NCBI GenBank assembly: GCA_003160215.1
Contig: PLQW01000093.1
Coordinates: 40,540-104,539 of the forward strand
Reading direction: 5' to 3'
DNA: 64,000 nt
Origin: Acidobacteriaceae bacterium
Lineage (GTDB): Bacteria > Acidobacteriota > Terriglobia > Terriglobales > Acidobacteriaceae
A program made the position numbers and the translations under genes. This document shows, in pieces, positions 2,852 to 43,318 of the stretch (positions are counted from its first letter, which is position 1; every line of letters begins with the position of its first letter). The notes below the pieces were generated by a model, which was not told the DNA's origin, did no database searches, and saw only the letters and a program-made list of their open reading frames with translations.

Positions 2852-2868
2852 AACTGGGGAACCGAACG

Positions 2869-4557
2869 ATGTGGGATGCTGAACCGATTTCGAAACCGCT
2901 GGCGGTGCCGCCCGTGCGCGACGCCGTCCAGCCGCTGTTTGACCGGGTGCATGGCTGGATCACGACCGTCGATCATAAGCGGCTGGGCATCCTCTACATC
3001 GTGTACGCGCTGTTTTTTTTGGTGATCGGCGGGATCGAAGCCTCGATCATGCGCCTGCAGTTGATACGACCGCATAACGATTTCGTCTCGCCGCAGGTTT
3101 TCAACCGGATGTTCACCATGCATGGGACGACGATGATTTTCTTCGTCGCTATGCCGGTGATGTTCGGCTTCATCAATTACGCGATTCCGCTGATGATTGG
3201 AGCGCGCGACATGGCGTTCCCGCGCTTGAACGCGTGGGGATTCTGGATGACCGCTTTCGGTGGCATCATCCTGTACTTCAGCTTTCTGGGAGGCAGCGGA
3301 CTGTACGGCGCCGGCAGTACTCCGGACGTGGGTTGGTTCGCCTACGCGCCGCTGACCTCGCCATCGTTCTCGGTGGGACACAGCACCGACTACTGGATCA
3401 TCGGACTGCTGATCAGCGGCTTCGGCAGCATCGCCACGGCGATCAACATCCTGACCACGATTTTCTGCCTGCGCTGTCCGGGGATGACCCTGGGTAAGAT
3501 GCCGCTGTTTGCCTGGATGAACATGGTGACCGCTGGATTGGTGGTGCTGGCCCTGGGGCCGCTGACCGCCGCCCAGCTTATGCTGCTGATCGATCGCTAC
3601 CTGGGCGGCCACTTCTTTGACACCCAAGCCGGCGGATCGGCCATCATCTGGATGCACTTCTTCTGGGTTTTCGGCCATCCCGAAGTCTATGTCCTGGTGA
3701 TGCCGGCTTTCGCGTTCGTGTCCGAGATCATTCCGGTTTTTTCGCGCAAAGCCATCTTCGGCTATCCCATCATGGTAGGGGCCACGATCTCGATTGGCTT
3801 CATCAGCATGAGCGTGTGGGCCCACCATATGTTCACGGTCGGCATGACCTCGTACGGCAACGCCTTCTTCGTGGCTTCCACTATGGCGATTGCGGTGCCG
3901 ACGGGAATCAAGATATTCAATTGGCTGGGCACCATGTGGGGCGGCAAGCTGATATTCAAGACGCCGATGCTTTTCTGCGTGGCGTTCTTGTTTCAGTTTC
4001 TCATCGCCGGTCTGACTGGGGTCATGCTGAGCGTGGCGCCATTCAATTGGCAGCTGGGCGGGTCGTACTTCGTGGTGGCCCACTTCCACTATGTCATCGT
4101 GGGCGGGATTCTGTTTGCCCTGTTTGGCGCTTTCTACTATTGGTTCCCCAAGATGTCGGGCCGGATGTACAACGAGAAGCTCGGCAAGCTGCACTTCTGG
4201 GTGTTCCTCATTGGCTTCCACCTGACATTCGACTTTATGCACATTCCCGGCATCCTGGGCATGCCCCGTCGCATTTACACGTACGAGCCGGGGCGCGGCT
4301 GGGATACCTGGAATCTCATCATCACTATCGGTGTGCTCTTTCAAGCCGTCGGCATTTTGATTTTTGTCTACAACCTGGTCTCGTCGTACTTCAAGGGCAA
4401 GCTGGCGGGCGACGATCCCTGGGACGCGTGGACACTGGAGTGGAGTACCAGCTCCCCGCCGCCCGATTACAACTTCGCCACGATTCCTGTGGTGCGAAGC
4501 CGTCGTCCGTTGTGGGACTTGAAACATCCCGAAGATCCTGACTGGAAGTACGAGTAA
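2869..4557 (+). CDS. ctaD: cytochrome c oxidase subunit I
   Basis: 562 aa, polytopic. Contains the haem-copper oxidase signatures WVFGHPEVYVLVMPAF, WAHHMFTVG and VVAHFHYVIVGG. Confidence 0.97.
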   Translation: MWDAEPISKPLAVPPVRDAVQPLFDRVHGWITTVDHKRLGILYIVYALFFLVIGGIEASIMRLQLIRPHNDFVSPQVFNRMFTMHGTTMIFFVAMPVMFGFINYAIPLMIGARDMAFPRLNAWGFWMTAFGGIILYFSFLGGSGLYGAGSTPDVGWFAYAPLTSPSFSVGHSTDYWIIGLLISGFGSIATAINILTTIFCLRCPGMTLGKMPLFAWMNMVTAGLVVLALGPLTAAQLMLLIDRYLGGHFFDTQAGGSAIIWMHFFWVFGHPEVYVLVMPAFAFVSEIIPVFSRKAIFGYPIMVGATISIGFISMSVWAHHMFTVGMTSYGNAFFVASTMAIAVPTGIKIFNWLGTMWGGKLIFKTPMLFCVAFLFQFLIAGLTGVMLSVAPFNWQLGGSYFVVAHFHYVIVGGILFALFGAFYYWFPKMSGRMYNEKLGKLHFWVFLIGFHLTFDFMHIPGILGMPRRIYTYEPGRGWDTWNLIITIGVLFQAVGILIFVYNLVSSYFKGKLAGDDPWDAWTLEWSTSSPPPDYNFATIPVVRSRRPLWDLKHPEDPDWKYE

Positions 4558-4616
4558 CAGCCGAGGCCACCCGCCATGGCGGGCGGTTTTGCGTCGAGGA
4601 AAAAGGAGACTCTCGC

Positions 4617-5213
4617 TTGGCAGCTACGACCATCGCGGTACCGCAACCCGAAATGCCGCTCTCGCACGAATTGCGCGGACGGGTGGGCATGTGGTGTCTG
4701 ATTGTCGCCGAGTCGGCGATCTTCAGCATCTTCGTGGTGGCGTACTTGTACTACGCGGGCAAGAGTATCAGCGGGCCGACGCCACGCGAAGTTCTTCATG
4801 TACCGTATTTCAACTCCATCTGTTTGTTCTCCAGCAGCTTCACGATCGTGATGGCGGAGCATGCCATCGCGCGTGGCAAGACCCGGCTGTTCGGGATCTG
4901 GTGGCTGCTGACCATTGTCCTGGGTGCGATCTTCATCCTGGGTACGGCACGCGAGTGGTACGGGCTGATCTACCGGGATGGACTGACCATCAGCTCCAGC
5001 CTGTTTGGAACCACGTTCTACTCGCTGGTGGGATTGCACGCCTTCCACGTGCTGGTGGGGCTGACCGGGCTGTCCATTATCCTGGCCTTCACCGCTCTGG
5101 GATACGTGAAGCAGGAGCACGCGGAACGGATCGGGGTCTTTGCCATGTATTGGCACTTCGTGGACGCCATCTGGGTGGTGGTGCTTTCGGTGGTGTACTT
5201 TATCACCCGCTGA
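4617..5213 (+). CDS. ctaE: cytochrome c oxidase subunit III
   Basis: 198 aa, 5 predicted TM helices, with FYSLVGLHAFHVLVG and WHFVDAIWVVV motifs. TTG start with AAGGAG 9 nt upstream. Confidence 0.9.
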   Translation: MAATTIAVPQPEMPLSHELRGRVGMWCLIVAESAIFSIFVVAYLYYAGKSISGPTPREVLHVPYFNSICLFSSSFTIVMAEHAIARGKTRLFGIWWLLTIVLGAIFILGTAREWYGLIYRDGLTISSSLFGTTFYSLVGLHAFHVLVGLTGLSIILAFTALGYVKQEHAERIGVFAMYWHFVDAIWVVVLSVVYFITR

Positions 5214-5250
5214 GTGGGACGGAAGGAAAAGCGAAGAGGCAAGCAAGAGC

Positions 5251-6117
5251 ATGCATATGCAAGAACCGCAGATCGGCAATGCCGAGCCCACCGACGTCAT
5301 GCTGCCCGCACCGACGGCGTGGCCGTTTACCCTGGCGCTGGGGTTGGCGTTGATTTTTGCCGGGATGCTGACCAACGTGTCGATCAGCATCCTGGGCGCT
5401 GTGTTGTATCTGTCCGGTGCGGTAGGATGGTTCCGCGAGGTACTTCCGCATGAACGTCACGTGCGGGTGCCTGCCGAGCCTGAAGCGGAGACAGGAACAG
5501 TTCCAGCCCGCGAAGTAATGCGCTTGCCGGTGGCGCAGCAGGTGCAACGCGCCTGGCTGCCCTTGAAGATCTATCCCATCTCCGCCGGAGTGAAGGGTGG
5601 ACTGGCCGGTGGTATCGCCATGGCGGTGCTGGCCATGCTCTACGGAGTCGTTTTCTTCCATAGCCTGTGGTATCCGATCAACTTGATCGCGGGCAGTCTG
5701 TACGACGCACCCGCGATTCCCACCACCGAAGCGCTGCTGCACTTCCGGCTGGGATGGTTCGTATTCGCGCTGGCCATGCACATCACCATGTGTCTGCTGG
5801 TGGGACTGCTGTATGGCGCGATGCTGCCCATGTTGCCCACCCGCCCGATTGTTCTGGGAGGGATCATCGGGCCATTGCTATGGACGGGATTGCTGTATCA
5901 CGTTCTGGGTTACATCAATCCCTTGCTGGACCAGCAGATCAACTGGTACTGGTTTGCGTTATCGCAGGTGGCCTTCGGAGTGGTGGCCGGGTTGGTGGTG
6001 GTGCGCCAGAACAAAGTGTGGACGTCAGAGAATCTGCCGCTGGCCATGCGCGCCGGCATTGAATCGCCCGGCATCGTCGATGAGCATGAGCACGACGGCG
6101 AGGACACTCGCCGATGA
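5251..6117 (+). CDS. integral membrane protein of unknown function, embedded in the oxidase/bc cluster
   Basis: The ORF track frame opens at 5140 and overlaps ctaE. The first ATG after the ctaE stop is 5251 (MHMQEPQIG...) with GAAGAGG upstream. The protein has about 7 hydrophobic segments. Its stop overlaps the next start (ATGA at 6114). I recognise no family motif. Confidence 0.6.
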   Translation: MHMQEPQIGNAEPTDVMLPAPTAWPFTLALGLALIFAGMLTNVSISILGAVLYLSGAVGWFREVLPHERHVRVPAEPEAETGTVPAREVMRLPVAQQVQRAWLPLKIYPISAGVKGGLAGGIAMAVLAMLYGVVFFHSLWYPINLIAGSLYDAPAIPTTEALLHFRLGWFVFALAMHITMCLLVGLLYGAMLPMLPTRPIVLGGIIGPLLWTGLLYHVLGYINPLLDQQINWYWFALSQVAFGVVAGLVVVRQNKVWTSENLPLAMRAGIESPGIVDEHEHDGEDTRR

Positions 6118-6863
6118 AGCATCGTTTCGCATTGCTGGCGTTGATGCTGGCCGCGCTGTTGGCGCTCGCGGGTTGTTCGCTGAGAGGCAAGCCCGGTCCG
6201 GGTCCCGAGGTGCCGCGCCCGGATTCCGTGCTGGACCCAGTCGTGCTCTATCGCGAGAACTGCTCGGCTTGCCATGGCGCCGAGGGCAAGCATGGACCGG
6301 CCATGACGCTGGGCGATCCGGTTTATTTGGCGATCGTTGACGATGACGTGCTGCGCACCACGATTTCTAAGGGCCGGACGGGGACAGCGATGTCAGCCTT
6401 CGCGCAGAAGGAAGGCGGCATGCTGACCGCGCAACAGATCGACGCCATCATTCACGGCATCCGCCAGCGCTGGAGCCAGCCCAACGTCTTGAGTGGGGTG
6501 GTAGCTCCGCCGTACGCGGCCAAAGCGCCGGGTAATCCGCAGCCGGGCCAGGCGGTCTACAACACGTTCTGCGCTTCCTGCCACGGCAACGGCAACCAGG
6601 GCGGATCCAAGGCGGGCTCGGTCACCAATGGCGCCTATCTCAGCCTGATCAGCGACCAGGGACTGCGCACCCTGGTCATCGCCGGCCGACCCGACTTCAA
6701 CGCCCCGGACTGGCGCAGCAATGTTCCCGGACACCCCATGAGCGATCAGGAAATTTCCGATGTGGTGGCCTGGCTGGCGGCGCAGCGTCGCCAGCCGTCA
6801 CCCGTACCGTATACCGCGAACCCATCTTCTACCGCGAACTCTTCGCCCGGAGGTGTGCATTGA
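6114..6863 (+). CDS. dihaem cytochrome c lipoprotein
   Basis: 249 aa with a lipoprotein signal ending LLALAGC and two haem-c sites (CSACH, CASCH), each followed downstream by a Met-containing region. Translationally coupled on both sides. Confidence 0.85.
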   Translation: MKHRFALLALMLAALLALAGCSLRGKPGPGPEVPRPDSVLDPVVLYRENCSACHGAEGKHGPAMTLGDPVYLAIVDDDVLRTTISKGRTGTAMSAFAQKEGGMLTAQQIDAIIHGIRQRWSQPNVLSGVVAPPYAAKAPGNPQPGQAVYNTFCASCHGNGNQGGSKAGSVTNGAYLSLISDQGLRTLVIAGRPDFNAPDWRSNVPGHPMSDQEISDVVAWLAAQRRQPSPVPYTANPSSTANSSPGGVH

Positions 6864-7435
6864 GCGAGGCGCCCACCCACGCCCCCCAGCCTGACAGCAA
6901 GGCTGAGATTTCACGCCGCGACCTGTTCGCCAAAATCGGCATGATGTTGAACGGCCTCGCCGTCGTGGTGCTGGCCACGCCGGTCGTAGGTTATCTGTTG
7001 GCGCCGATCTTGCGCGGAGAGCGCGGCCAGTACCAACGGTGGGTATCACTGGGAGATCTCGATGAATTCCCCGAAGGCCAAACCCGCCTGGCCCAGTTTC
7101 GCAACCCCATCTCCAATGCTTGGGACGGCGATACCGACAAGATTCCCTGCTGGGTACGCCGCCTGACGGGCGAGCAGTTTCAGGTGTTCGCCATTAATTG
7201 CGCTCACTTGGGTTGCCCCGTCCGCTGGTTCCCGCAATCCGGCTTGTTCATGTGCCCCTGTCACGGTGGAGTGTATTACCAGGACGGCTCCCGCGCTTCC
7301 GGACCGCCTCCGCGCGGCCTGTTCCAGTATTCCTACAAAGTCGAGGACGGCAAGTTGATGATTGAAGCGGGACAGATTCCCACCTTGTCGACGACCGCGA
7401 GCTTGCAGACGAGGAGCGGTGGATGTCAAGGCTAA
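6860..7435 (+). CDS. Rieske [2Fe-2S] protein of a cytochrome bc-type complex
   Basis: 191 aa with a Tat-like SRRDLF followed by a TM anchor and the Rieske boxes CAHLGCPV and CPCHGG. TTG start overlaps the upstream stop, and GGAGG lies 6 nt upstream. Confidence 0.9.
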   Translation: MSEAPTHAPQPDSKAEISRRDLFAKIGMMLNGLAVVVLATPVVGYLLAPILRGERGQYQRWVSLGDLDEFPEGQTRLAQFRNPISNAWDGDTDKIPCWVRRLTGEQFQVFAINCAHLGCPVRWFPQSGLFMCPCHGGVYYQDGSRASGPPPRGLFQYSYKVEDGKLMIEAGQIPTLSTTASLQTRSGGCQG

Positions 7436-8907
7436 AGCAGATCGGAAACTGGTTTGAGCAGCGCCTGCAGATCGCGGGCGTGATCCGCGAGACGGCCACG
7501 CATCCGGTGCCCCGCCAGTCGGCGAGCTGGTGGTATGTCTTCGGCAGCGCCGCGCTGACCATCTTCATCCTGCAGGTCTTCACCGGCATCATGCTGGCGC
7601 TGATCTACGTGCCTTCGGCCGGCGAAGCCTGGAACAGCCTGCAATATCTCAACCACGATGTCACCCTGGGATGGTTCCTGCGCGGAGTGCACGGCTGGGG
7701 CTCCAACTTCATGGTCGCGGTGGTGCTCATCCACATGGCGCAGGTGTTCCTGTTTGGCGCCTACAAGTTTCCCCGCGAGCTGACCTGGATCCTCGGTGTG
7801 TTTCTGCTGCTGATGACCCTGGGTATGGCCTTCACCGGCCAGGTCCTGCGCTTCGACCAGGATGCCTATTGGGGCCTCGGCATCGGGGTCGCCATCATGG
7901 GCCGCGTTCCTATTCTCGGGGCCAGTCTGGTGCATCTGCTGCTGGGCGGTCCCATCATCGCCGGCGACACGCTGTCGCGATTCTTCGCCCTGCACGTGTT
8001 CGTGATTCCCGGCCTGCTCATCGGGTTCGTCTCCTTGCACCTGCTCATGGTGCTGAAGCTGGGCATCAACGAATGGCCCATGCCCGGACGCATCGTCCGC
8101 CGCTCCACTTATGTTCAGGAATACCATGAGATGGCGCACCGCGACGGCGTTCCCTTCGTGCCCGACGCAGTATGGAAAGACATGTTCTTTTCCGCCGCCA
8201 TCATCGTCAGCGTGATGGCCTGTGCCGCCTACTTCGGACCGTTTGGTCCCAGCGGCTATCCCGACCCCACCATCGTCCAGACCATTCCCAAACCCGACTT
8301 CTTCTTCCTGTGGATCTATGCCATGCTGGCCTTGCTGCCTCCACAGATGGAAACAGCCATCCTGCTCATCGCCCCGGTGGTCGTTCTGGGCTTCCTGATT
8401 CTGTTGCCCTTCCTGTCGGGCGAGGGAGAGAAGAGCTGGAAGCGGCGGCCCATTGCCGTGGTCACGGTGCTGCTGATCGCGGTGGCTCTGGGAACCTTCA
8501 CCAAACTGGCCACCTATTCGCCCTGGAGTCCCGTGATGGACGGCTGGAGCGGTGACCCAGTGCCCGTGGAGTATCTCAACGGGCGATCGCCGCTGGAGCG
8601 GCAAGGCGCGCTGGTCTTTCAGGTGAAGCAGTGCCGCAACTGCCATTCCATCGGCGACTCCGGCGGCAAGCGCGGACCCGCCCTAGATACGATCGCCACC
8701 ACTCTAACCCGTGACCAACTAGTACGGCAGGTCATCCAAGGCGGCGGCAACATGCCCGCCTACGGCAAGAACCTGAACCCGGCGGAAGTGACTGCTTTGG
8801 TTTCCTTCCTGGAAACCCTGCATCTCCCCGGTCGCCCGCCCGCCCGCGATGCCGCCCAAGCCACCGTCACCAAGCAAGAAAATTCTCCCCCTGCCAGCAA
8901 TCGCTGA
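7423..8907 (+). CDS. cytochrome b (b6 plus subunit-IV-like parts fused) with a C-terminal monohaem cytochrome c domain
   Basis: 494 aa. The N-terminal cytochrome b helices carry conserved His residues (GVHGWGSNFMVAVVLIHM, FFALHVFVIPG..SLHLLMV). A PDFFFLWIY segment sits in the position of the PEWY motif. The C-terminus carries CRNCH. GAGGAG lies upstream, and the gene overlaps the Rieske gene by 13 nt. Confidence 0.9.
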   Translation: MSRLKQIGNWFEQRLQIAGVIRETATHPVPRQSASWWYVFGSAALTIFILQVFTGIMLALIYVPSAGEAWNSLQYLNHDVTLGWFLRGVHGWGSNFMVAVVLIHMAQVFLFGAYKFPRELTWILGVFLLLMTLGMAFTGQVLRFDQDAYWGLGIGVAIMGRVPILGASLVHLLLGGPIIAGDTLSRFFALHVFVIPGLLIGFVSLHLLMVLKLGINEWPMPGRIVRRSTYVQEYHEMAHRDGVPFVPDAVWKDMFFSAAIIVSVMACAAYFGPFGPSGYPDPTIVQTIPKPDFFFLWIYAMLALLPPQMETAILLIAPVVVLGFLILLPFLSGEGEKSWKRRPIAVVTVLLIAVALGTFTKLATYSPWSPVMDGWSGDPVPVEYLNGRSPLERQGALVFQVKQCRNCHSIGDSGGKRGPALDTIATTLTRDQLVRQVIQGGGNMPAYGKNLNPAEVTALVSFLETLHLPGRPPARDAAQATVTKQENSPPASNR

Positions 8908-8912
8908 GGGTC

Positions 8913-10400
8913 ATGCAATCCGTCTTTCAAGCCGCGCTGCGCTCCTGGTCCATTCCGCCGGTCGCCACGTTCGCGCTGATACTGACGGCGCTGGTTTACC
9001 TGCGCGGCTGGATCGATCTTCGCCGCGCGGGTTCTACCGAGTTGCCGCCCTGGCGCGCCGTCACTTTTCTCGTCGGACTTCTTTCCCTTTGGGTCGCGCT
9101 GGCTTCTCCGCTCGATACCTTCTCGGGATTCGTGCTGACGGCCCACATGCTGCAACACATGCTGCTGATGATGGTGGCGCCCCCGCTGATTCTTCTGGGT
9201 GCGCCTCTTATCCCCATCGTGCGCGGATTGCCGCGCTTCGCTGCCCGCGAATTTGCAGGACCGTTTCTGAATTGGCCGCTCGCCAATCGGATTGGAACCG
9301 CGCTGACAAATCCGATTTGCGCCCTGGCGCTCATGGGCGCGGTAATGTTCGCCTGGCATACCCCAAAGCTCTACGAGCTGGCCTTGGGTTCGAGTTCGTG
9401 GCACGAGGTGGAACATGCATGCTTCTTTCTCACCTCGATAATTTTCTGGTGGCCGGTGGTGCAACCGTGGCCAAGCCGGGCGCAGTGGCCGCGCTGGGCG
9501 ATGGTGCCCTACCTGTTCGTTGGCGATCTTCAAAACACTATTCTGTCTGCCATCCTGGTTTTCTCCGATCAAGTGCTCTATCCCTCCTATGTCCTGACAC
9601 CTCGCCTGTTCGGTCTCTCGGCACAAGCGGACCAAGCCGCGGCGGGAGCCATCATGTGGGTTTTGGGTGGGTTCGCATACGTGTTTCCGGCGGTTGTCAT
9701 CGCCGTACATTGTCTCTCCAAGCGTCCCGGGGTGGTTCCAACTCGCAACAGAGAACGCGCTCCCGTTGACAAATCGCCGTCCTTCCGCAGCAAATTTCCG
9801 TGGCTCGCCGATTTCCTGCGCCCGCGAATCCAGGGCAGAACCGCCGAGATGGTTTGGTTTGTGGTTGTATTCGTCGTAACCGGATTGTGCTTTTCATTCC
9901 TGATCGCAACTTCGTCCGACGATGACGATCAGGCCCTCCGGCTATGGAAACAAAGCGGACCGTTTAGCGTTGCGATTCTTGCGCCGCCCGGCGATCTTCA
10001 AGCCGGCCCCACCAGCTTCGGCATTCTGGTCCAGGATCGGAACACGCAAGAGGTACTGCTTGACTCGACCGTCGATCTCAGTGCGCGGCCGGCTGTTGCT
10101 GTAGGTGCCCCACCCCCCTCGGTCCGTGCAACCCACGAGGATTCCGAAAACAAGCTGCTGCAGGCCGCGGAACTGGATCTACCGGCAGCCGGCGACTGGA
10201 CGGTGAACATTGCGCTCAGCCGCAATGCCGAAAGCGCGGACCTCTCGTTGCCACTTCGCGTGGTGAAACGAGAAAGCGGGCTTGGCGATCTGTGGCCTTA
10301 CTTTCTCTTCCCGGGATTTGGCATGGTCCTGTTTGGAGCTTATGTTCGGCGGCACCACGAGCCCACAGGTTCACCAATGGAGCAGCACGTGTCGTCGTAA
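8913..10400 (+). CDS. ctaG: caa3-type cytochrome oxidase assembly factor CtaG (membrane type) with an extra TM plus periplasmic C-terminal domain
   Basis: 495 aa. The first ~280 aa are polytopic with LTAHMLQHMLLMMVAPPLILLGAPL and WHEVEHACFF..FWWPV, as in Bacillus-type CtaG. The last ~200 aa are one TM helix, a soluble domain and a final TM helix. Confidence 0.78.
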   Translation: MQSVFQAALRSWSIPPVATFALILTALVYLRGWIDLRRAGSTELPPWRAVTFLVGLLSLWVALASPLDTFSGFVLTAHMLQHMLLMMVAPPLILLGAPLIPIVRGLPRFAAREFAGPFLNWPLANRIGTALTNPICALALMGAVMFAWHTPKLYELALGSSSWHEVEHACFFLTSIIFWWPVVQPWPSRAQWPRWAMVPYLFVGDLQNTILSAILVFSDQVLYPSYVLTPRLFGLSAQADQAAAGAIMWVLGGFAYVFPAVVIAVHCLSKRPGVVPTRNRERAPVDKSPSFRSKFPWLADFLRPRIQGRTAEMVWFVVVFVVTGLCFSFLIATSSDDDDQALRLWKQSGPFSVAILAPPGDLQAGPTSFGILVQDRNTQEVLLDSTVDLSARPAVAVGAPPPSVRATHEDSENKLLQAAELDLPAAGDWTVNIALSRNAESADLSLPLRVVKRESGLGDLWPYFLFPGFGMVLFGAYVRRHHEPTGSPMEQHVSS

Positions 10401-10542: not shown

Positions 10543-10618
10543 GGGGCTATAGCTCAGCTGGGAGAGCGCATCGTTCGCAACGATGAGGTCGTCGGTTCGA
10601 GCCCGACTAGCTCCACCA
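10543..10618 (+). tRNA. tRNA-Ala (anticodon CGC)
   Basis: Hand-folded cloverleaf. Acceptor GGGGCTA/TAGCTCC includes the G3:U70 alanine identity pair. Arms: D GCTC/GAGC, anticodon stem CATCG/CGATG with loop TTCGCAA, T GTCGG/CCGAC. The CCA end is encoded. Confidence 0.95.
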
Positions 10619-10904
10619 AATAAACGCAAATTTTCCGGACCTGCATCCACACCAAAGTGGCCGTTGCGTAGAAGGATGCCTTCGATCATTACGTTCGTTT
10701 TGGCGGTTGCATTCGTGCAAGACGGGGACTATTCTGGCTCAAAATAGGGATGTTAACCTGGTCGCTAGTTCGTTCGTAGGCGGCAAAAAAGGCTGACGCT
10801 GTTTTTGCGTAGGCGTTGACTTGCCCAACCAGAGGGGGCACACGAGGCGACCGTCGTTCACTTAACTCCGAAACTTTTCGGGGGCGGTAATTGGGAGCTA
10901 TACG

Positions 10905-11831
10905 ATGCTGACCCAAAGCAGAACGATCCCCACTGTCTTCATTGCGTTTTTTTTGGCCTGCCTTCTGAACACCACAATATCGGCGCAGGGACAGGCGGCG
11001 AACCCGAATTCGCAGACATCCTTCGCGCCAACCGCCGGCCCCCAGTATGTCGGGTCCGACACCTGCAAGACCTGCCACGAAGATCAGTACAAGCAGATTG
11101 AAGCCACTCAACATTGGAACACGAACCTGGCCAATCTCAAGAAGGGCACGGGGCAGGAGTGGCATGGCTGTGAATCGTGTCATGGTCCTGGCTCCGCCCA
11201 CGTGGAAGGTGGCGGCGACAAATCGAAAATCTTCTCCTTCAAGGGAGCGACCGCACAGCAGGTGAGTGCACGCTGTCAGACGTGCCATGGCACCACTCAT
11301 CCTGACTTCCAGCGTTCTGTGCATTACCAAGCCGACGTGAGTTGCATCACGTGCCATTCGCCCCATCAAGCGAAAGAGCAAGTCGCGCTGCTGAAGGCGA
11401 AGACCCCGACCCTGTGCTACGGCTGCCACACCGACGCGATTGCCGATTTTAACCGTCCCTTCCACCACCGGGTGAACGAAGGCCTGGTGCAGTGCCAGGA
11501 CTGTCACAACGTGCACGGCAGCCTGCCGAAAGCCGCGAAGATCAGCACGGCGCAGGACCAGATCTGCCTGAAGTGCCATACAGAGAAACGCGGGCCGTTC
11601 GTCTTCAACCATCTGCCGGTGAAGACAGAAGGCTGCACGGCATGCCATGTGCCGCATGGCTCGAACAATCCGCGGCTGCTGACCCGCAACAACGTCAACA
11701 ATCTGTGCATTGAGTGCCACGGGCTGTCGACGTTCCTGACGTTGCACAACCAGGCCAACAAATATCAAGCGTGCACCATGTGCCACGTTGCCATTCACGG
11801 CTCGAACGCTAGTGACGTCTTCTTCAAGTAA
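10905..11831 (+). CDS. periplasmic decahaem c-type cytochrome (MtrA/DmsE/PioA/MtoA-like)
   Basis: 308 aa with a signal peptide (..FLACLLNTTISAQGQ) and exactly ten CxxCH sites: CKTCH, CESCH, CQTCH, CITCH, CYGCH, CQDCH, CLKCH, CTACH, CIECH, CTMCH. It ends CHVAIHGSN..FFK, as MtrA-family proteins do. Confidence 0.9.
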   Translation: MLTQSRTIPTVFIAFFLACLLNTTISAQGQAANPNSQTSFAPTAGPQYVGSDTCKTCHEDQYKQIEATQHWNTNLANLKKGTGQEWHGCESCHGPGSAHVEGGGDKSKIFSFKGATAQQVSARCQTCHGTTHPDFQRSVHYQADVSCITCHSPHQAKEQVALLKAKTPTLCYGCHTDAIADFNRPFHHRVNEGLVQCQDCHNVHGSLPKAAKISTAQDQICLKCHTEKRGPFVFNHLPVKTEGCTACHVPHGSNNPRLLTRNNVNNLCIECHGLSTFLTLHNQANKYQACTMCHVAIHGSNASDVFFK

Positions 11832-11843
11832 AAGGGGGCGACG

Positions 11844-14330
11844 ATGAAAGCAAATTCAAATCGGATTTATTCATCTCCTCCTCGTTGCCTTGAAGCGACG
11901 AAGAAGGAAAGCGGCTGGAGGGTGTTCCGTCGCGTAATGACGCTGGCAGTAGCTGGTGCGGTGTTGTGCCTATCGGCGAATCTCGCGGCGCAACAGCTCG
12001 GCGTAGACGTCACCAGCGCGCAGCAGGAGAGCGGCACCGACCTGGGCAATTACCACACAAATTTCGATATCGAGGCGGGCTACCGCTTTGTGGGCACCGA
12101 AGGCAACGCCTCGATGTACTCGACGTGGGTGAACATGCAGCAGGGGCCGCGCATCCTGTCGTCGGACCTGAGCATGCGCTCGCTCAACCATGACGGATTT
12201 CTCTTCGACCGCCTCAACATGTCGAGCTTTGGCTACGGCGGCGATCCTGAAACGGCCACCCGCCTGACCGTGTCGAAGGACAAGTGGTACGACTTCAACT
12301 TCACTTATCGCCACGACCTGAACTACTGGGATTACAACGTGCTGGCCAATCCGCTGAACCCGGTAAACCCGTACGTGGTGGTCAACCAGTCGCCGCACCT
12401 GATGCAGCCGTCGCGCGACTTCCAAAACTATGACCTGACTATCATGCCGGAGTCGCGCCTGCGCTTCCGGGCGGGCTACAACTACAACGGAAGCCAGGGC
12501 CAAACCGACACCACGTTTCACGCGGGCACGGACATTTTGCTAGTGCAACCGTGGCGCGTGACCGGACAGACCTACCGCTTCGGGGCAGACTACCGGATAT
12601 TCAGCCAGACCACGATCAGCTACGACCAGACCTTCGACACCTTCAAGAACGATACCTTCCAGGTAGACCAGAACCAGATGTTCTCACTGCAAAATGGAAC
12701 TCCGGTGGATATCGGACTGCCCTTCAACCCGGCGGCGGGCCTGCCGTGCTCTACGCCATTCATCAACGGCTCCTATAATCCGAAGTGCAATGGCGATTTC
12801 AGCTACGTGCGATCGGGACCGGTGCGAAGCTTTCTGCCGACCGAGCAGATCTCGCTGCATTCCAGCTTTCTCAAACGGGTTGACCTCACCGCTCGGTACG
12901 CTTACAGCAGCGGCTACAGTCAGGTCACCAACTACCTGGAGGAGTTCAATGGATTAGAGTCTCGCACCAACCAGCGGGAATTCGCGTTTACCGGCCCATC
13001 TAACACCAAGCGCGTCCTGGACGATGGGGATTTCGAAGGGACCTGGCACATCACCAATAAGCTTGCCTTCTCCGAAGCGTTCCGCTTTTACAATTCGCGA
13101 TCGCCGGGGACCTTGGACAGCGTGGGTACATCGTGCTTCCCCAACGGCGGGACGTCGCTGCTCTCCGGGATTGGCGTGTTCAACTCGCCTGGGGTATCGC
13201 CACAGATTTGCCTGAACGGATCGGGAACTCCGGTCCACACCGGCAGCAGTCCAGCCGATGTGGATTACGTGAATTACTACCGATACCTAAACCTGAACTT
13301 CAAGTACAACACCGCCGACCTGGAATACACGTTGAACCGGCGCGTCGGCGGTCACATCGGTTATCGCTACGCCGACAAGCAAGCCAACTCCAACAACAAC
13401 CTCAGTAATACGGATGCAGGAACGGCCTACTTCTATCCCAACGACGCGCAACGCGGAGCGCCTTGCACGCAAACCCTGGCCGACGGAACCTGCGTGGTAA
13501 TGACGCCAGTTGTCACCGCCGGGGATTATTACGCGATCACCGAGAACTGGGGAATTTTGGGAGTGTGGGTGCGGCCCATGGATACTCTCCGCCTCAATGG
13601 CGACGTCGAAATTATGGCGGCCAACGGTGCGGGCGGGGTGTTGTTTACCCGCATCGAGCCGCGCAATTTGCAGCACTACAAGCTCCGCGGCCGCTACACG
13701 CCGAAAAAATGGCTGGCGGTCTCGGGCACTCTGAATTGGATTGAAAGCCAGAACACCGGACCCGACACGGATGGCACCATAACGGCCAACCATCACGACC
13801 ACAACCATTATGCCGGGTTCGATATTTCGATGACGCCGCGCGAACTCATCTCGTTTGACCTGGGCTATGACTACAACAACGTTGTGTCGACGACCGACGT
13901 TTGCGTTAACCTGGGCACTCCGTCACTCGCGGCCGACCCCTGCTATGCCGATAGCAACGGAGCGAACACCTTCGCCATCTGGCATTACCAGAACACGGTG
14001 AATTCCGTCTACTTCAACGTCATCCTGCGTCCCACCAAGCGGACGGCGTTTGCCGCCGGATATTATTTGGTGGACAGCACCGGCAGCGACCCTCTGTTTC
14101 TTCCCACGACAGGAATTGTGACGGTGGCCAATCCGTTGCAGCCGCTGGGTTCGTTGTCCTCGCTGTATCACACGCCGAGCGCGTCGCTCGCCTTCGCTCT
14201 TGCGAAAGGGTGGGAGGCGAAAGGTATGTGGAATTATTACGACTACCACGAGCGCGGTAATCCCGGACCGATTCTGCCGCGCGACTTCCACAGTAATACG
14301 GGAACCATCGCGGTCAGATACGCATTCTGA
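11844..14330 (+). CDS. large outer-membrane beta-barrel, probable MtrB/PioB-family partner of the decahaem cytochrome
   Basis: 828 aa, starting 13 nt after the cytochrome gene with GGGGG upstream. It has a signal-like AVLCLSANLAAQQ and no long hydrophobic helices. It is rich in alternating Y/F/N/G/T strand-like segments and ends ...GTIAVRYAF, the terminal aromatic residue typical of OMPs. The family call rests on size and synteny, not on a search. Confidence 0.72.
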   Translation: MKANSNRIYSSPPRCLEATKKESGWRVFRRVMTLAVAGAVLCLSANLAAQQLGVDVTSAQQESGTDLGNYHTNFDIEAGYRFVGTEGNASMYSTWVNMQQGPRILSSDLSMRSLNHDGFLFDRLNMSSFGYGGDPETATRLTVSKDKWYDFNFTYRHDLNYWDYNVLANPLNPVNPYVVVNQSPHLMQPSRDFQNYDLTIMPESRLRFRAGYNYNGSQGQTDTTFHAGTDILLVQPWRVTGQTYRFGADYRIFSQTTISYDQTFDTFKNDTFQVDQNQMFSLQNGTPVDIGLPFNPAAGLPCSTPFINGSYNPKCNGDFSYVRSGPVRSFLPTEQISLHSSFLKRVDLTARYAYSSGYSQVTNYLEEFNGLESRTNQREFAFTGPSNTKRVLDDGDFEGTWHITNKLAFSEAFRFYNSRSPGTLDSVGTSCFPNGGTSLLSGIGVFNSPGVSPQICLNGSGTPVHTGSSPADVDYVNYYRYLNLNFKYNTADLEYTLNRRVGGHIGYRYADKQANSNNNLSNTDAGTAYFYPNDAQRGAPCTQTLADGTCVVMTPVVTAGDYYAITENWGILGVWVRPMDTLRLNGDVEIMAANGAGGVLFTRIEPRNLQHYKLRGRYTPKKWLAVSGTLNWIESQNTGPDTDGTITANHHDHNHYAGFDISMTPRELISFDLGYDYNNVVSTTDVCVNLGTPSLAADPCYADSNGANTFAIWHYQNTVNSVYFNVILRPTKRTAFAAGYYLVDSTGSDPLFLPTTGIVTVANPLQPLGSLSSLYHTPSASLAFALAKGWEAKGMWNYYDYHERGNPGPILPRDFHSNTGTIAVRYAF

Positions 14331-15709: not shown

Positions 15710-18700
15710 TCAGTTCACCTGGGCGGTGCGTTCGGCGGGCTGAGCAACGAGCAGTTCCGTTGCCGGACAAAGGCTGCGATACGAGCAAAAGCGGCAATGC
15801 CGGCCAGGCCTGGGTTCGAAGTGTCCGGCGGCAATATTAGCTGCGGCCGCGCCCACCCTAGCCTCTTCGTCTGCGAGTTCCGCCGGCGACCGCCGTGACT
15901 GGACCGCGCTGCAATCCGCGAGATTGACGATCACGAGTGAGTCGGCCAGAAAACCCATGCTCTTAGCTGCCAGCGCGTAGATGGAAAGTTGCAGGCTCTC
16001 GTCTGCATCGTCCTGCGTCTTCGGCTTTCCGGTCTTGTAGTCAACAATGCTGACGCGGTCACCCTCGACCCGCTCAAGGCGATCCATTCGTCCCTTCACT
16101 ATGGTCCCGCCAATGTTGGCACGGAAAAAGCGCTCGTTGTTCAGAATCTCGCCAGTGGGCTTCGCCAGATCGGAGCGCAGAAACTGCCGCAGTTGCTCGC
16201 AGCCATCCTTGTCGTAAAGCTCGCGCTGCGCGTCCTCCTCGATCTTCGCCTTGCCGAACTCGTCGCGAAAACACGCAATGACCGCATCTTCATCCGGCGG
16301 ATGCCCGGCACGGACGCCATCGAAATAGGCTTTAAGGGCCAGGTGCATCGCCGAACCAAATTGCATCATGGCCGCAGGCTCCTCGGGGATACACCAATCG
16401 CGGCTGAGCTTGAATGCTAGCGGGCAGCGTTCGTACTGCTCGATGGCGCTGGCGCTCAACTCACCCAGTGGCGCATCGCATCGCGCCGGTAGCTGCATCC
16501 ATTGCGCGATCAGCGGTTGTGGCTCGGCTGCGGCATGCATGGTTGGGACAATGTCGGACGGCGGCAACTGATGACATTCGATGGCGCCCCGCAGCATGGA
16601 GACCCGCGCGCTCGCTAACTCCCGCATGAACTTGGGAGGGATGGGATCTTTGCCGCGCCGCAACTCGCCGCAAACGTACAGATCGTCCATGGCGCGCGTC
16701 ATGGCAACATAGAAGAGCCGCCGCTGTTCCGCGGCGTGAAGCGTCTTGGAATCCGCTTCTGCCGCCGCCACCGCGCTCCGGAGTTCGATGGGGAATTCGA
16801 TCAGCGCCTGCCGGTGCCCACTGGGGAACGAAGGTGAAACCACACGCAAAACGAAGACGCAGGGGAACTCCAGCCCCTTCGCGGAATGGACGGTCATCAA
16901 CTGCACGGCGTCGTGCAGCAGTTCGCCGGCTGTCAGGTCTTTAGGCGCAAGAGCGGTGACTGGGTCGGCATCGTCGTCGTCGGTAAGGCAACCACCCACG
17001 TCGCGAAACAGCTTGAGGTGGTCGAGGAACTCGCGGAGCGTGCCCTCGCCTCGGATCAGCCTGGGCTTCCCATACCAGCGTCCGGCGAACTCCTGCAAGC
17101 ACTGCCAGCCCGGAGACTCAGGCAGTTGAAACGCCGGTTGCGCAATCTTCATCGCCGCCAAAAGGTCGCCCTTGGCTTCGGCTACTTCGCGACGCGACTC
17201 CCGGACGAGGTCCATCACTTCCCTTCCGGGACCGGATTTTTCCAGCGCCGCCTCGGCCGAACCGTTCCTGCCCGCCAGAGCCAACTCAGCCCGAAAGCGT
17301 TCGGGGTCAACTCGAAACTGCGGCAAGGCGGCAACCCGGAACAGCGCAATGGGATTGGGGCCTTCCACGAGGCGCAACGCCGCCACAGCATCACGGACCT
17401 CGGGAGTTTCGAACCGATCGGCGCCTCTGACCGCGGTCGCAATGCCGCGGCGCCGCAGCTCGGCCACCACAGCGTCCCGATGGTTGTGAAGGTGGTAGAG
17501 GACGGCGAAGTCGCGAAGGGGCATCGCAGGCCGCTGCCGGCGCATTGCTTCAATTGTGTCCACGACGAACTCGGCCTCCTGCTCGCATCCGTTGTGCACA
17601 ATGGCTTGCACTGCAGGCGCGTTCGCCAACTCCGGTTCTTCCTTCAGGCGGAGACATTCGAGCGGCTCGCGCTTCCACTCGCCTGCTTGCAGCTTAACGA
17701 CGGGGTTGCAGGATATTGCCTGATAAGCACAGCGCAGTACAGGTGGAGTGGAGCGACGATTCTGCGACATGCTGACGCGCTGCACACGGCCAGGACCAAA
17801 CGTCGCGAGGAACTCCTCGAAGATACCGCTGGTGGCGCCGCGGAAGCGATAGATCGCCTGGTCAGGATCGCCGACGGCGAAGACGTTAGCTTCTGCCCCG
17901 GCCAGCAGACTCGTCACTCTAAGCTGCGCAATATTGGAATCCTGGAACTCGTCAATCAGGATAAAGCGCGCTCGTTTCTGCGCCCGCTCCAGTAGCGAAC
18001 GTCGGCGGCCCAGCAATTCCACGGCGCGGGTCAGGATATGTCCGAAGGTACCGAGCCCTTCCCGTTTCAGCAGGTCCTCGGTGAAGCGAAAGACCCGAGC
18101 CAGTTCGCGGCAGCGGCCCAGCACCTGCTCCGCGCCCATGACTGCGGCATCCTTCGATTTGCCCATGCGCGGTAGCGGAAGCTCTTTCCGCTCCAGCCGG
18201 GCGACATAGTTGTCGTAATCGTCAGGCGTGCGCAACTCGTCATGGCAGCGGCGAACAAATTTCAGCAGCTCCTCGAGGAAGGTGCCGGGCTCGGAAGCCT
18301 TAATGTAATGCTCGAGTTTCAGCTCGGCGATGCGCTGCCGCAAGAGGATAAGCAGGTCCGTATCGTCAATCAGTCCGAAGCTGATCCCCGAATCGCGCAG
18401 CAAACCATAACAGTAAGCATGAAAGGTGTTTGCCTGGAGTCCGCTGGCCATCAGCTTTCTGGCTGCACGCTGGCGGTCGAGCTGGGGATGGAGAATGCCG
18501 CCGACGCGAGCGATCAGTTCAGCCGCAGCGTTGCGCGTGTAGGTGACCGCGAGAATCTCGTCGGGCTCGGCCGCTCCGCTGTCGATGAGCTGTGCGATAC
18601 GGCGTGACAGGACGGTGGTTTTACCGGTGCCGGCGCCCGCCACCACCAGCATGGGACCGTGCACATGTTCGATTGCCCGGCGTTGCTGATCGGTGGGCTC

Positions 18701-18730
18701 GAAATCGAATGGTAGGTAGTTCTGCACCAT
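15710..18730 (-). CDS. UvrD/PcrA-type superfamily-1 helicase fused to a C-terminal PD-(D/E)XK nuclease with a 4-Cys (Fe-S) cluster (AddA/AddB-like)
   Basis: Motifs are Walker A AGAGTGKTT, DEFQDSN, TVHSAKGLEF and VAMTRA. The C-terminus carries IVDYKTGK (nuclease core) plus CPLAF...CRFCSYRSLC. The preferred start is ATG 18730 (MVQNYLPFDF...) with GAGGG upstream; the ORF track frame opens at 18793. Confidence 0.9.
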   Translation of the reverse strand: MVQNYLPFDFEPTDQQRRAIEHVHGPMLVVAGAGTGKTTVLSRRIAQLIDSGAAEPDEILAVTYTRNAAAELIARVGGILHPQLDRQRAARKLMASGLQANTFHAYCYGLLRDSGISFGLIDDTDLLILLRQRIAELKLEHYIKASEPGTFLEELLKFVRRCHDELRTPDDYDNYVARLERKELPLPRMGKSKDAAVMGAEQVLGRCRELARVFRFTEDLLKREGLGTFGHILTRAVELLGRRRSLLERAQKRARFILIDEFQDSNIAQLRVTSLLAGAEANVFAVGDPDQAIYRFRGATSGIFEEFLATFGPGRVQRVSMSQNRRSTPPVLRCAYQAISCNPVVKLQAGEWKREPLECLRLKEEPELANAPAVQAIVHNGCEQEAEFVVDTIEAMRRQRPAMPLRDFAVLYHLHNHRDAVVAELRRRGIATAVRGADRFETPEVRDAVAALRLVEGPNPIALFRVAALPQFRVDPERFRAELALAGRNGSAEAALEKSGPGREVMDLVRESRREVAEAKGDLLAAMKIAQPAFQLPESPGWQCLQEFAGRWYGKPRLIRGEGTLREFLDHLKLFRDVGGCLTDDDDADPVTALAPKDLTAGELLHDAVQLMTVHSAKGLEFPCVFVLRVVSPSFPSGHRQALIEFPIELRSAVAAAEADSKTLHAAEQRRLFYVAMTRAMDDLYVCGELRRGKDPIPPKFMRELASARVSMLRGAIECHQLPPSDIVPTMHAAAEPQPLIAQWMQLPARCDAPLGELSASAIEQYERCPLAFKLSRDWCIPEEPAAMMQFGSAMHLALKAYFDGVRAGHPPDEDAVIACFRDEFGKAKIEEDAQRELYDKDGCEQLRQFLRSDLAKPTGEILNNERFFRANIGGTIVKGRMDRLERVEGDRVSIVDYKTGKPKTQDDADESLQLSIYALAAKSMGFLADSLVIVNLADCSAVQSRRSPAELADEEARVGAAAANIAAGHFEPRPGRHCRFCSYRSLCPATELLVAQPAERTAQVN

Positions 18731-19044
18731 GCCCTCGGTTATGCGAAGAAAAAGCGAACACGCTATTATGCTCGGTTGGCGGACAGATGGCAAGAGGACT
18801 GAGGATTAGTTAGCAGATTGTCACCCTGACCGCGAGCATCGCCTTCACTCTGGAGCAAGAAACAAACATGACAACACGATTCACGCGTGCCACGCTGTTT
18901 CTCTCGCTAGTACACCAAGTGTAACGATCTGAAACTGCCAAGCGGAAACTTGTTCCGTGCGACCCATACACCCAAAACGGCCACATCCTCCAGCGTATAA
19001 TCGTCGTTTGCGCACATCATTCCAAGCACAGTAGGGATATCCAC

Positions 19045-21709: not shown

Positions 21710-22759
21710 ATGGACGCACCGGCAAATATCGGCAGACGGGAGCGCGAAATTCTCACCGCCGTCGTGGAGTCTTACATCTCCACGGGAGAGCCGGTGGGCT
21801 CGCGCACCCTGGCTCGCGCCAACCGCGAGAACCTCAGCGCTGCTTCCATTCGCAACGTGATGGCCGATCTCGCCGACGCTGGATTTCTGGAGCAACCGCA
21901 TACCTCGGCGGGCCGCGTTCCGACCACCAAGGCTTATCGCTACTACGTGAAACAGTTGACCGGGGAAGCGCGTCTGTCGCCCGCTGACGAGGGTTTGATC
22001 CAGGGAAGCCTGCAAGGTCTGCAGGATGTGCCCGAGTTCATGGAGCGCAGTTCGCATGTGCTGTCGCTGATTTCGCACAGCGTGGGCGTCACGGTCAGTT
22101 CGATAGCGGGCCAGCACAACGCACTGGAGCATGTGTACTTCCAGCGGATGGCCGACAAGAAAGTTCTGGCCGTCGTGGTCATGCGCAACGGCATCGTGCG
22201 CGACCGCGTGCTGCGGCTCAGCCAGGATTTGGCGGTGGCCGATCTGGAAGCCGCCGCAGCCTATATCAATCAGAACTTTCGCGGTTGGGAGATGGAGTCG
22301 CTGCGCAACGAGATCGGCAAGCGGATCCAGCAGGAGCGCAGCGAATATGATCGCCTGATGCGTTCGGTGGAGCAGCTCTGCGCGCAGGGTGCGCTGGCCA
22401 CCGAAGCCGCCGCCCAGGCGGTGTACGTGGAAGGCGCGGCGAACCTGGTGATCACCGAGCAGGACCAGGAGCGCCTGCGGCAGTTGCTGGCCACGCTGGA
22501 GGAAAAGCAGCGTATTGTCGATCTACTCTCTGCGTACCTCGACGTCCGCCAGGAGGCGGTGCGCGTAGTTGTGGGTCTGGAAGACGCCGTACCGCATCTA
22601 AGTAACTTCGTACTGATTGGAATGCCAGCGCGGGTGGGCGACGAGGTCATGGGTTCGCTGGCTGTGATTGGCCCGACCCGCATGGATTATGAGCACACCA
22701 TGACTGCGGTGTCGTACATCGCGCGGCTGTTCGACCAACTCTGGAACGAGTCGACCTAG
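21710..22759 (+). CDS. hrcA: heat-inducible transcription repressor HrcA
   Basis: 349 aa with N-terminal RREREILTAVVESYISTGEPVGSRTLA, the winged helix typical of HrcA. CIRCE lies upstream and grpE-dnaJ downstream. Confidence 0.95.
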   Translation: MDAPANIGRREREILTAVVESYISTGEPVGSRTLARANRENLSAASIRNVMADLADAGFLEQPHTSAGRVPTTKAYRYYVKQLTGEARLSPADEGLIQGSLQGLQDVPEFMERSSHVLSLISHSVGVTVSSIAGQHNALEHVYFQRMADKKVLAVVVMRNGIVRDRVLRLSQDLAVADLEAAAAYINQNFRGWEMESLRNEIGKRIQQERSEYDRLMRSVEQLCAQGALATEAAAQAVYVEGAANLVITEQDQERLRQLLATLEEKQRIVDLLSAYLDVRQEAVRVVVGLEDAVPHLSNFVLIGMPARVGDEVMGSLAVIGPTRMDYEHTMTAVSYIARLFDQLWNEST

Positions 22760-22767
22760 AAATAATT

Positions 22768-23367: not shown

Positions 23368-23393
23368 ATCAGTCTCGAAAAAGGTAAACAGTT

Positions 23394-32262: not shown

Positions 32263-32373
32263 GGCTCACCATAGCATATATTGAATCCAATACGTACCGT
32301 ATCGTATCTGAGACTTTTGTAGCTCTTGCAAGCGGCCTGCCGATCCGGCCCTGATTGGAGTCGTACCCGACCG

Positions 32374-35716: not shown

Positions 35717-35732
35717 TCCGAAGGACTCACAT

Positions 35733-43316: not shown

Positions 43317-43318
43317 TC

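Follow-up and report, generated by a model that had tools for sequence, protein, structure and literature searches.

The DNA analysed here (hereafter the window) is a stretch of 64 kb from contig PLQW01000093.1 of an Acidobacteriaceae bacterium (Terriglobales), and all positions are those of the window. Its forward strand carries, in immediate succession, a gene for a decahaem c-type cytochrome and a gene for a large protein predicted to form an outer-membrane β-barrel. The pair very probably encodes a porin–cytochrome conduit of the MtrAB/MtoAB/PioAB type, in which the barrel belongs to a divergent subfamily. The statements on function made below rest on sequence and predicted structure.

The gene pair and its decahaem cytochrome

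The two genes and the non-coding segments next to them are arranged as follows.

10619–10904, forward strand: non-coding region from the tRNA-Ala gene to the decahaem gene, presumed to hold the promoter and the 5′ untranslated region
10905–11831, forward strand: decahaem c-type cytochrome of the DmsE/MtrA/MtoA/PioA family, 308 amino acids (aa)
11832–11843, forward strand: intergenic spacer of 12 nucleotides (nt) with AAGGGGG, a Shine-Dalgarno-like ribosome-binding site of the barrel gene
11844–14330, forward strand: outer-membrane β-barrel, 828 aa, distant member of the MtrB/PioB superfamily, ending in ...VRYAF

Both open reading frames (ORFs) are as the initial annotation had described them: translation of 10905–11831, the stop codon of which ends at 11831, gives a secreted-type protein of 308 aa in which CxxCH occurs exactly ten times. 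Just downstream, after the 12-nt spacer, the 828-aa frame opens with the ATG at 11844 and runs to 14330, and its product terminates in VRYAF. The third-position G+C of the two ORFs (0.74–0.75) is that of real coding sequence. A ribosome-binding site, GGGAG, lies ∼8 nt ahead of the ATG at 10905, and the tight spacing of the two genes, together with the ribosome-binding site in the spacer, suggests an operon with translational coupling. A promoter would be expected upstream of the decahaem gene; a scan around the operon for consensus sequences of promoters (sigma-70, plus strand) and terminators returned nothing above chance.

The CxxCH motifs of the cytochrome are located at residues 54, 89, 124, 147, 171, 197, 221, 244, 268, and 290; the variants CxxxCH and CxxCK are absent from the protein. 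Of its 21 cysteine residues, 20 are within motifs and the remaining one is in the hydrophobic, signal-type N-terminus (residues ∼1–27). Among all six-frame stop-to-stop ORFs of the window, this is the only one with more than two CxxCH motifs, and the array of ten can therefore not be attributed to chance. Judged by these sequence features, the protein is probably exported to the periplasm and furnished with covalently attached haem.

On sequence grounds, membership of the cytochrome in the DmsE/MtrA/MtoA/PioA family is established. The profile TIGR03508, which is named after DmsE and covers DmsE, MtrA, MtoA, and PioA alike, matched it with 244.9 bits (cut-off 192.2) over profile positions 1–257 of 258, canonical MtrA-type controls scoring 258–322 bits, so that the family search proposed in the initial annotation was passed above the cut-off. 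The affinity to NrfB that had been considered as the alternative was not found, as NrfB models yielded only 28–43 bits versus cut-offs of 167–184 (43 bits versus 184 for the closest); the scores on models for NrfH, cytochrome c3, and other multihaem proteins were far under their cut-offs, too. The top sequence match in the PDB was chain A of 6R2Q (E 5.4e-33, residues 49–301; runner-up 7e-11), which is MtrA of the Shewanella baltica MtrCAB complex, the molecule being named differently in the PDB copy searched. MtrA from a canonical mtrCAB cluster recovered from a Photobacterium replicon, used as comparator, was 28% identical (E 7e-36). Beside the motif histidines, an alignment of 30 homologues contains invariant histidines at positions 70, 99, 140, 154, 188, 204, 236, 251, 281, and 298, most of which visibly match histidines of MtrA in the alignment with 6R2Q_A. 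These candidate distal ligands number exactly ten, enough for bis-His coordination of every haem.

The AlphaFold model of the cytochrome, computed without haem, was poor (predicted local distance difference test, pLDDT, 58.8), which is not surprising when the cofactor is missing. A fold search with this low-confidence model gave MtrA as the sole significant match (E 1e-6, 33% identity), versus E 0.23 for NrfB. Those of the 5386 homologues retrieved that bear a name are called “DmsE family decaheme c-type cytochrome”. On NF041028, the model of the GSU2203 family, the protein scored 220.6 bits (cut-off 325); canonical MtrA proteins score equally (208–234 bits), and a special affinity to GSU2203 is therefore not indicated.

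The barrel and its remote kinship with MtrB and PioB

The barrel was examined by means of an alignment of 36 homologues, which was also the basis of its AlphaFold model (mean pLDDT 81.8, predicted template modelling score 0.72). The N-terminus is of the signal type (residues ∼1–49), and the only predicted helix spans residues 24–52; beyond it, the model is all β-strand, in agreement with the initial annotation, which had called the protein strand-like and devoid of hydrophobic helices. The first strand starts at residue ∼65–70, and strands continue up to residue 827. Because the first strand directly follows the signal segment, there is no plug domain, and the Pfam domains TonB_dep_Rec and Plug found no match in the protein. 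The number of transmembrane strands is 26 or 28 (counted from DSSP elements, long loops on one face being required). On one face of the modelled barrel, the strands are joined by turns of 2–5 residues and on the opposite face, which is presumably the extracellular one, by loops of 10–44 residues. The protein is ∼170 aa longer than canonical MtrB, most of the extra residues being supplied by loops, several of which have no counterpart in the MtrB/PioB profile. Among the loop cysteines, C302/C315 and C687/C700 are invariant in the 36 members, C456 is present in 35, and C550 in 26; the pairs 302/315 and 687/700 presumably form disulfides. At the C-terminus (...RYAF), which constitutes a β-signal, Y826 and F828 are conserved, the terminal phenylalanine without exception. 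CxxCH motifs are present neither in the window barrel nor in any of the 36 homologues.

When the model was compared with the PDB using Foldseek, the first match was chain B of 6R2Q, MtrB (E 1.5e-15; template modelling score, TM, 0.72 when normalized to the target and 0.58 to the query). The matches that followed were 22-strand TonB-dependent receptors with TM values of 0.29–0.44. An unrelated outer-membrane protein with a plugged barrel, which the initial annotation had named as the competing outcome, is thus at odds with a model that is plug-less and matches MtrB with TM 0.72 versus at most 0.44 for the receptors.

Remote homology was also evident at the level of sequence profiles. When the 36 homologues were aligned, using hhalign, with 26 PF11854 proteins (from Vibrio, Aeromonas, and Shewanella, plus divergent metagenomic members), a probability of 97.3% and an E-value of 1.9e-11 were obtained over 483 collinear columns, spanning columns 171–797 of 797 of the barrel family and 166–695 of 703 of the PF11854 proteins. 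The score of the real alignment was 103, versus 22–43 (probability ≤31%) for controls in which reversed and block-shuffled versions of the alignment were used. Running the family against one single MtrB gave a probability of 1.2%, and searching all PDB sequences with the 36-homologue profile returned nothing at E ≤10, so that the homology emerged solely in the comparison with the 26-sequence profile. A further connection is provided by NF041027, the model of the GSU2204 family, which matched 35 of the 36 homologues (best E 2.4e-11) and, weakly, three of the four canonical MtrB/PioB proteins tested; the window barrel itself reached 25.9 bits (cut-off 350), and only over residues 605–689. The GSU2204 family, partner of the Geobacter decahaem GSU2203 (OmcK), is listed as an MtrB/PioB-type barrel (PMC13188914). 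Fold, profile–profile homology, and the GSU2204 bridge are three independent lines, drawn from sequence and a predicted model, that link the barrel to MtrB.

Several observations weigh against counting the barrel, and with it the pair, among the known conduits. PF11854 and TIGR03509, the profiles with which the assignment to MtrB/PioB was to be checked, gave no match to the window barrel at E ≤1, so that the check proposed in the initial annotation came out negative for the barrel. BLASTP of the window barrel against four canonical MtrB/PioB barrels, which served as positive controls, likewise returned nothing (E ≥0.03), whereas these four find one another at E 1e-16 to 1e-82. Moreover, a CxxC motif within the first 110 residues, present in 19 of the 26 PF11854 proteins versus 2 of the 36 members of the barrel family, is absent from the window barrel. 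Among the 36 homologues, PF11854 produced two chance-level matches (best E 0.012) and TIGR03509 none. Since both models fail on this family, whereas the canonical proteins score 411–551 bits on TIGR03509 (all four; cut-off 240 bits) and 510 bits on PF11854 (one), the barrel is a distant outlier rather than an ordinary member. It is therefore filed here as a distant new subfamily of MtrB/PioB, and not as a member in the sense of an annotation. Every barrel homologue bearing any name is called “hypothetical protein”.

Pairing and partner genes among relatives

Relatives of the barrel were sought in a scan of one genome per species, which yielded at least 562 stretches, the best 80 of which were examined as loci. 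All relatives seen are metagenome-assembled genomes (MAGs), some with doubtful binning. Nearly all of the 80 loci are from MAGs of Terriglobia (Terriglobales, Acidobacteriaceae, Ca. Sulfotelmatobacter, and Ca. Acidiferrales/Acidoferrum), and the closest one in the scan (L005; 90% aa and 91% nt identity) is from a Terriglobales MAG, consistent with the Acidobacteriota background that the initial annotation had supposed. In a representative search of protein clusters (50% identity), 2,338 clusters matched the barrel at E ≤1e-3, of which 553 reached E ≤1e-30. Ten more divergent members, drawn from the best 150 of the 2,338, were compared with PF11854; nine had no match, and one had a match at chance level (E 0.14, 11.2 bits), so that none of the ten serves as a bridge to PF11854.

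The association of the two genes is obligate, or very nearly so. In 78 of 80 loci, the barrel gene is closely preceded by a cytochrome ORF with at least eight haems, and exactly ten CxxCH motifs are present in 75 of these 78 cytochromes; the two unpaired loci hold merely 41 and 663 nt of upstream DNA. Neither a fall in barrel identity from 99% to 35% nor a change to an otherwise unrelated neighbourhood breaks up the pairing. Decahaems of this clade are 53–71% identical to each other and 28–35% identical to decahaems paired with canonical barrels, which argues that both subunits form a deep branch of their own. An ORF with at least eight haems at the position of MtrC is absent from all 80 loci; genuine MtrC is readily detected by the same models (550 bits on TIGR03507 in L089).

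The genes following the barrel were counted in those 72 of the 80 loci that have at least 3 kb of sequence after it. A small monohaem cytochrome c (∼115–130 aa) follows straight after the barrel in 41 loci, a cytochrome of 150–300 aa with three to four haems and weak similarity to NrfH/NapC/TorC is present in 24, and one of ∼670–700 aa with 11 haems in 10; in 18 loci the pair stands alone, as it does in the window and its nearest relatives. The C-terminus of one long 11-haem cytochrome, the one tested, is a b-type cytochrome of the formate-dehydrogenase-gamma/hydrogenase type, which corresponds to the architecture of CbcL/MtoC/MtrH. The small cytochrome matches class-I cytochromes of the c6/c552 type in the PDB.

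In one subgroup (L002, 10477–17715; also L018, L022, and L032), many electron-transfer genes come in series after the pair; they encode, in this order, a monohaem cytochrome c, an 11-haem CbcL-like protein, another monohaem cytochrome c, a Rieske protein, and cytochrome b, then a 9-haem cytochrome of ∼420 aa and finally an NrfH-like multihaem protein of ∼507 aa. This series looks like a dedicated quinone-linked module joined to the conduit. Three MAGs contain two copies of the pair on different contigs, namely MFD06714.bin.1.126 (L025/L028), SMAG_U12627 (L066/L072), and SMAG_U11490 (L045/L070); paralogous modules can thus coexist in one genome. Family contigs binned outside the Acidobacteriota were also encountered (L035, L041, L045, L065, L069, L070, L084, and L085), the bins being assigned to Binatia, Eisenbacteria, Dormiibacterota, Bacillota, Chlamydiota, and Methylomirabilis, those found by the genome scan having 35–39% barrel identity. 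Furthermore, a decahaem with 97% identity (P0121) bears the label Ca. Limnocylindrales. Such assignments could be due to mis-binning or to horizontal transfer. One stretch used for comparison, L088 (1–7343), carries a canonical two-gene arrangement of a decahaem and a 780-aa PF11854 barrel; this pair adjoins genes for DabA and a proton-antiporter-type subunit (the DAB inorganic-carbon uptake pair), which suggests that the host may be an autotroph and would make the stretch a useful comparator of the Mto/Pio type.

The probable conduit, its direction, and its surroundings

Taken together, the family of the decahaem, the fold of the barrel, its profile–profile homology, and the near-obligate pairing support the porin–cytochrome module without an outer cytochrome that the initial annotation had proposed, set in an Acidobacteriota background in which such modules are poorly characterised. 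We put the probability that the pair is a conduit of the MtrAB/MtoAB/PioAB type, albeit on a divergent barrel subfamily, at roughly 0.85. In such a conduit, both proteins would be exported to the periplasm, and the 828-aa protein would fold in the outer membrane as a barrel of ∼26–28 strands, into the lumen of which the decahaem would thread, by analogy with 6R2Q. Its ten closely spaced bis-His haems would then bridge periplasmic carriers and redox material outside the cell, such as Fe(II)/Fe(III), humic substances, or mineral surfaces. Because there is no separate surface cytochrome of the MtrC type, extracellular contact may be made by the outermost haem of the decahaem together with the long, disulfide-bearing loops of the barrel, whose location at the surface is again assumed by analogy.

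As in MtrCAB (6R2Q; Photobacterium/Vibrio), the decahaem gene precedes the barrel gene, ten bis-His haems are expected, and one and the same complex gives the best structure match for both proteins. Unlike in MtrCAB, there is no MtrC gene in the window (the order in Photobacterium being MtrC-MtrA-MtrB), and the barrel, besides its additional length and its extra loops with conserved Cys pairs, lacks the N-terminal CxxC; pairwise comparison detects no similarity of its sequence to canonical MtrB. MtoAB of Sideroxydans lithotrophicus ES-1 and Gallionella has in common with the window pair a decahaem of ∼310–330 aa encoded right upstream of a large barrel and the lack of an MtrC-type cytochrome. 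The relatives share still more with it, as their barrel gene is followed by that of a small monohaem cytochrome c and then by that of an NrfH/NapC-like or CbcL/MtoC-like membrane cytochrome; in the mto clusters of Fe(II) oxidisers, mtoA-mtoB are accompanied by mtoD and either cymA or mtoC (PMC6295460, PMC10654088). However, this likeness to MtoAB is one of layout, the window barrel fails PF11854/TIGR03509, and the window pair has no adjoining genes of the mtoD and cymA/mtoC types. PioAB of Rhodopseudomonas palustris TIE-1 is likewise a two-gene arrangement of a decahaem and a barrel of ∼800 aa without a surface cytochrome; in contrast to it, the window has no gene for PioC (a high-potential iron-sulfur protein), and its barrel fails the MtrB/PioB models. 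PioA also bears a long N-terminal extension, which the 308-aa decahaem of the window lacks. That Acidobacteria have homologues of PioA/B has been reported in general terms (PMC10654088). GSU2203 (OmcK)/GSU2204 of Geobacter sulfurreducens, finally, is connected to the pair by NF041027, the sole curated model to match the barrel family. In contrast, both proteins of the window score far under the curated cut-offs (325 and 350 bits), and GSU2204-family proteins carry a CXXCH or selenocysteine site, which has no equivalent among the CxxCH-free barrel homologues.

Two features lie directly upstream of the pair.

1709–10400, forward strand: respiratory super-cluster, directly upstream of the tRNA-Ala gene and the pair
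10543–10618, forward strand: tRNA-Ala(CGC), between the respiratory cluster and the pair

The super-cluster encodes, in this order, a COX2-cytochrome c fusion, COX1, COX3, a protein without family match, a dihaem cytochrome c, a Rieske protein, cytochrome b with a C-terminal cytochrome c domain (494 aa), and CtaG (495 aa). The COX2-cytochrome c fusion, COX1, and COX3 constitute, by their sequences, a predicted caa3-type oxidase; the ORF at 5140–6117 (325 aa; 286 aa as called in L086) had no family match. The haem c-binding ORFs of the window number four (the COX2-cytochrome c fusion, the dihaem cytochrome c, the cytochrome b-c fusion, and the decahaem), and genes of the MtrC/OmcA type or resembling CymA are not among them or elsewhere in the 64 kb, as had been noted initially. 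A strain 99% identical in the barrel has the same respiratory context upstream. L005 aligns with the window from 10638 on, just past the tRNA, and has different genes upstream, and the pairs of L001 (68% aa identity) and L006 (67%) lie in unrelated neighbourhoods. The break in synteny with L005 falls exactly at the 3′ end of the tRNA-Ala gene and had raised the idea of a genomic island; there is no integrase in the ORFs scanned, and no claim of a mobile island is made because the 3′ end of the tRNA is not repeated in the window.

The balance tilts slightly towards electron uptake, whereby extracellular Fe(II) or reduced humics would feed the aerobic chain. Consistent with uptake, no ORF with eight or more haems occupies the MtrC position in the 80 loci and no further multihaem ORF exists in the window, the partner genes in relatives are the component set of mto clusters (PMC6295460, PMC10654088), and a Rieske/cytochrome b complex and a caa3 oxidase are encoded directly upstream of the window pair. 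Against it speaks, first, that the adjacency to the respiratory chain is not conserved, as L005, L001, and L006 differ upstream, and that no gene for a small cytochrome or for CymA/CbcL stands beside the window pair. Second, MtoD was not among the listed PDB matches of the relatives' small cytochrome, which is therefore MtoD-like by position only. Third, proteins of the CymA and CbcL types serve Fe(III) reducers as well. Finally, reduction of Fe(III)/humics is the role that has been ascribed to MtrA-like decahaems of Acidobacteria (PMC3669403). From the two-gene layout, the initial annotation had deduced kinship with Fe(II)-oxidising systems; the layout itself was borne out, but the step to Fe(II) oxidation is merely suggestive, the decahaem being equidistant from the decahaems of two-gene clusters (L088 and L090, 32.7–34.6% identity) and that of a three-gene cluster (L089, 34.4%). 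In FeGenie, MtoAB is treated as ambiguous between oxidation and reduction because such conduits are known to be reversible (PMC7005843).

The same conduit may thus work outwards, passing electrons from the quinol pool under low oxygen to extracellular Fe(III), Mn(IV), humics, or soluble chelates, in which case the organism would facultatively reduce metals or humics instead of oxidising Fe(II); this is a serious contender, to which we attach somewhat less than an even chance. The relatives are largely MAGs from peat, wetland, permafrost, and other soil, including Ca. Sulfotelmatobacter, and the MtrA-like decahaems of Acidobacteria from Arctic peat, proposed to be Fe(III)/humic reductases, resemble Geobacter decahaems (PMC3669403). 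The sole NCBIfam match of the barrel is to the GSU2204 family, also from Geobacter, and transcripts of GSU2203/GSU2204 are elevated in cultures with iron oxides (PMC4070692). In addition, NrfH/NapC-like and CbcL-like proteins, as found next to the pair in relatives, are quinol-oxidising entry points of known reducers (PMC6295460), and MtoA, according to work cited in PMC7005843, partly rescues Fe(III) reduction in a Shewanella ΔmtrA mutant. Against outward transfer speaks the lack of an MtrC/OmcA-type surface cytochrome in the window and in the flanks of the 80 relatives. In Shewanella, the terminal reduction of solids is usually carried out by such a surface cytochrome. The periplasmic partner in 41 of the 72 relatives is a class-I, c6/c552-like monohaem cytochrome; members of this class usually have a high potential and are better suited to passing electrons on to an oxidase than to reducing Fe(III) oxides. 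It is also an aerobic chain that is encoded beside the window pair.

A conduit of the DmsEF type, feeding a dedicated extracellular reductase for dimethyl sulfoxide, iodate, or a similar substrate instead of metals, would explain why the decahaem passes a model named after DmsE; such a role is very improbable, as no molybdopterin reductase (DmsAB-like) gene is next to the window pair and the downstream genes in relatives encode cytochromes rather than DmsAB-like proteins. That the two genes are unrelated neighbours, an NrfB-like periplasmic carrier and a substrate porin, TonB-dependent receptor, or LptD-like barrel, might be suspected from the silence of the curated MtrB/PioB models, the predominance of TonB-dependent receptors in the structural match list, and the weak NrfB-domain matches in the decahaem, but is highly unlikely in view of the recurrence of the pair in 78 of 80 loci whose neighbourhoods differ widely, the superior fit of the plug-less barrel to MtrB, the hhalign result with its failing controls, and the passing of TIGR03508 by a decahaem that remains far below every NrfB cut-off and matches MtrA rather than NrfB in fold. 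The readings as TonB-dependent receptor, NrfB, and DmsEF were rejected on this evidence.

A two-protein conduit is unsurprising in principle; what makes the present one useful is that it is a widespread, half-invisible module of dominant soil bacteria. Terriglobia rank among the most abundant bacteria of soil and peat, and their role in iron and humic redox reactions is largely inferred. Many of them carry this probable two-protein conduit in complete form, with the barrel half annotated only as “hypothetical protein”. Since the standard MtrB/PioB models miss the barrel, surveys that require both halves under-count the module; FeGenie, for instance, relies on TIGR03509 for MtrB (PMC7005843). 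The presence of MtrA-like decahaems in Acidobacteria, including Terriglobus saanensis and Ca. Solibacter usitatus, was reported in 2013 (PMC3669403), and a large survey of Mtr evolution makes no mention of Acidobacteria (Baker et al. 2022, PMC8805035). In the literature searched, no description of the barrel family was found, nor anything specific on MtrA of Sulfotelmatobacter or on decahaem cytochromes of Terriglobia. We give even odds to the notion that the barrel is a distinct deep branch, mainly of Terriglobia, which has co-diverged with its own decahaem clade and is invisible to PF11854 and TIGR03509. If true, extracellular electron exchange by Acidobacteriota of soil and peat would be systematically under-called, in either direction, and the extra disulfide-bearing surface loops may stand in for an MtrC-type cytochrome as the contact with the substrate. 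A relative of MtrAB that naturally lacks MtrC and has large, conserved loops with predicted disulfides is of interest to structural biology, as it bears on how the substrate is contacted and on whether sequence reveals the direction of flow. A dedicated barrel profile is easily built from the alignment of the 36 homologues, with which metagenomes and metatranscriptomes of soil, peat, and permafrost could be re-screened.

Downstream of the pair, the genes are on the opposite strand and apparently unrelated to it, encoding a glycoside-hydrolase-like protein and a helicase-nuclease of the AddA type. The following features were located in the remainder of the window, whose genes are ordinary chromosomal content.

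15710–18793, reverse strand: AddA-type UvrD/PD-(D/E)XK helicase-nuclease
21710–24527, forward strand: hrcA-grpE-dnaJ
32323–38419, forward strand: resistance-nodulation-division efflux pump with outer-membrane factor
43151–56838, forward strand: complex I (nuo) operon

Long ORFs are also present antisense to several of the genes described above, one of 369 aa over the decahaem gene (10689–11798, reverse strand), one of 565 aa over COX1 (2830–4527, reverse strand), and one of 404 aa over the cytochrome b gene (7432–8646, reverse strand). That at 2830–4527, the only one tested, had no family match. These antisense ORFs look spurious, as is usual in G+C-rich DNA.

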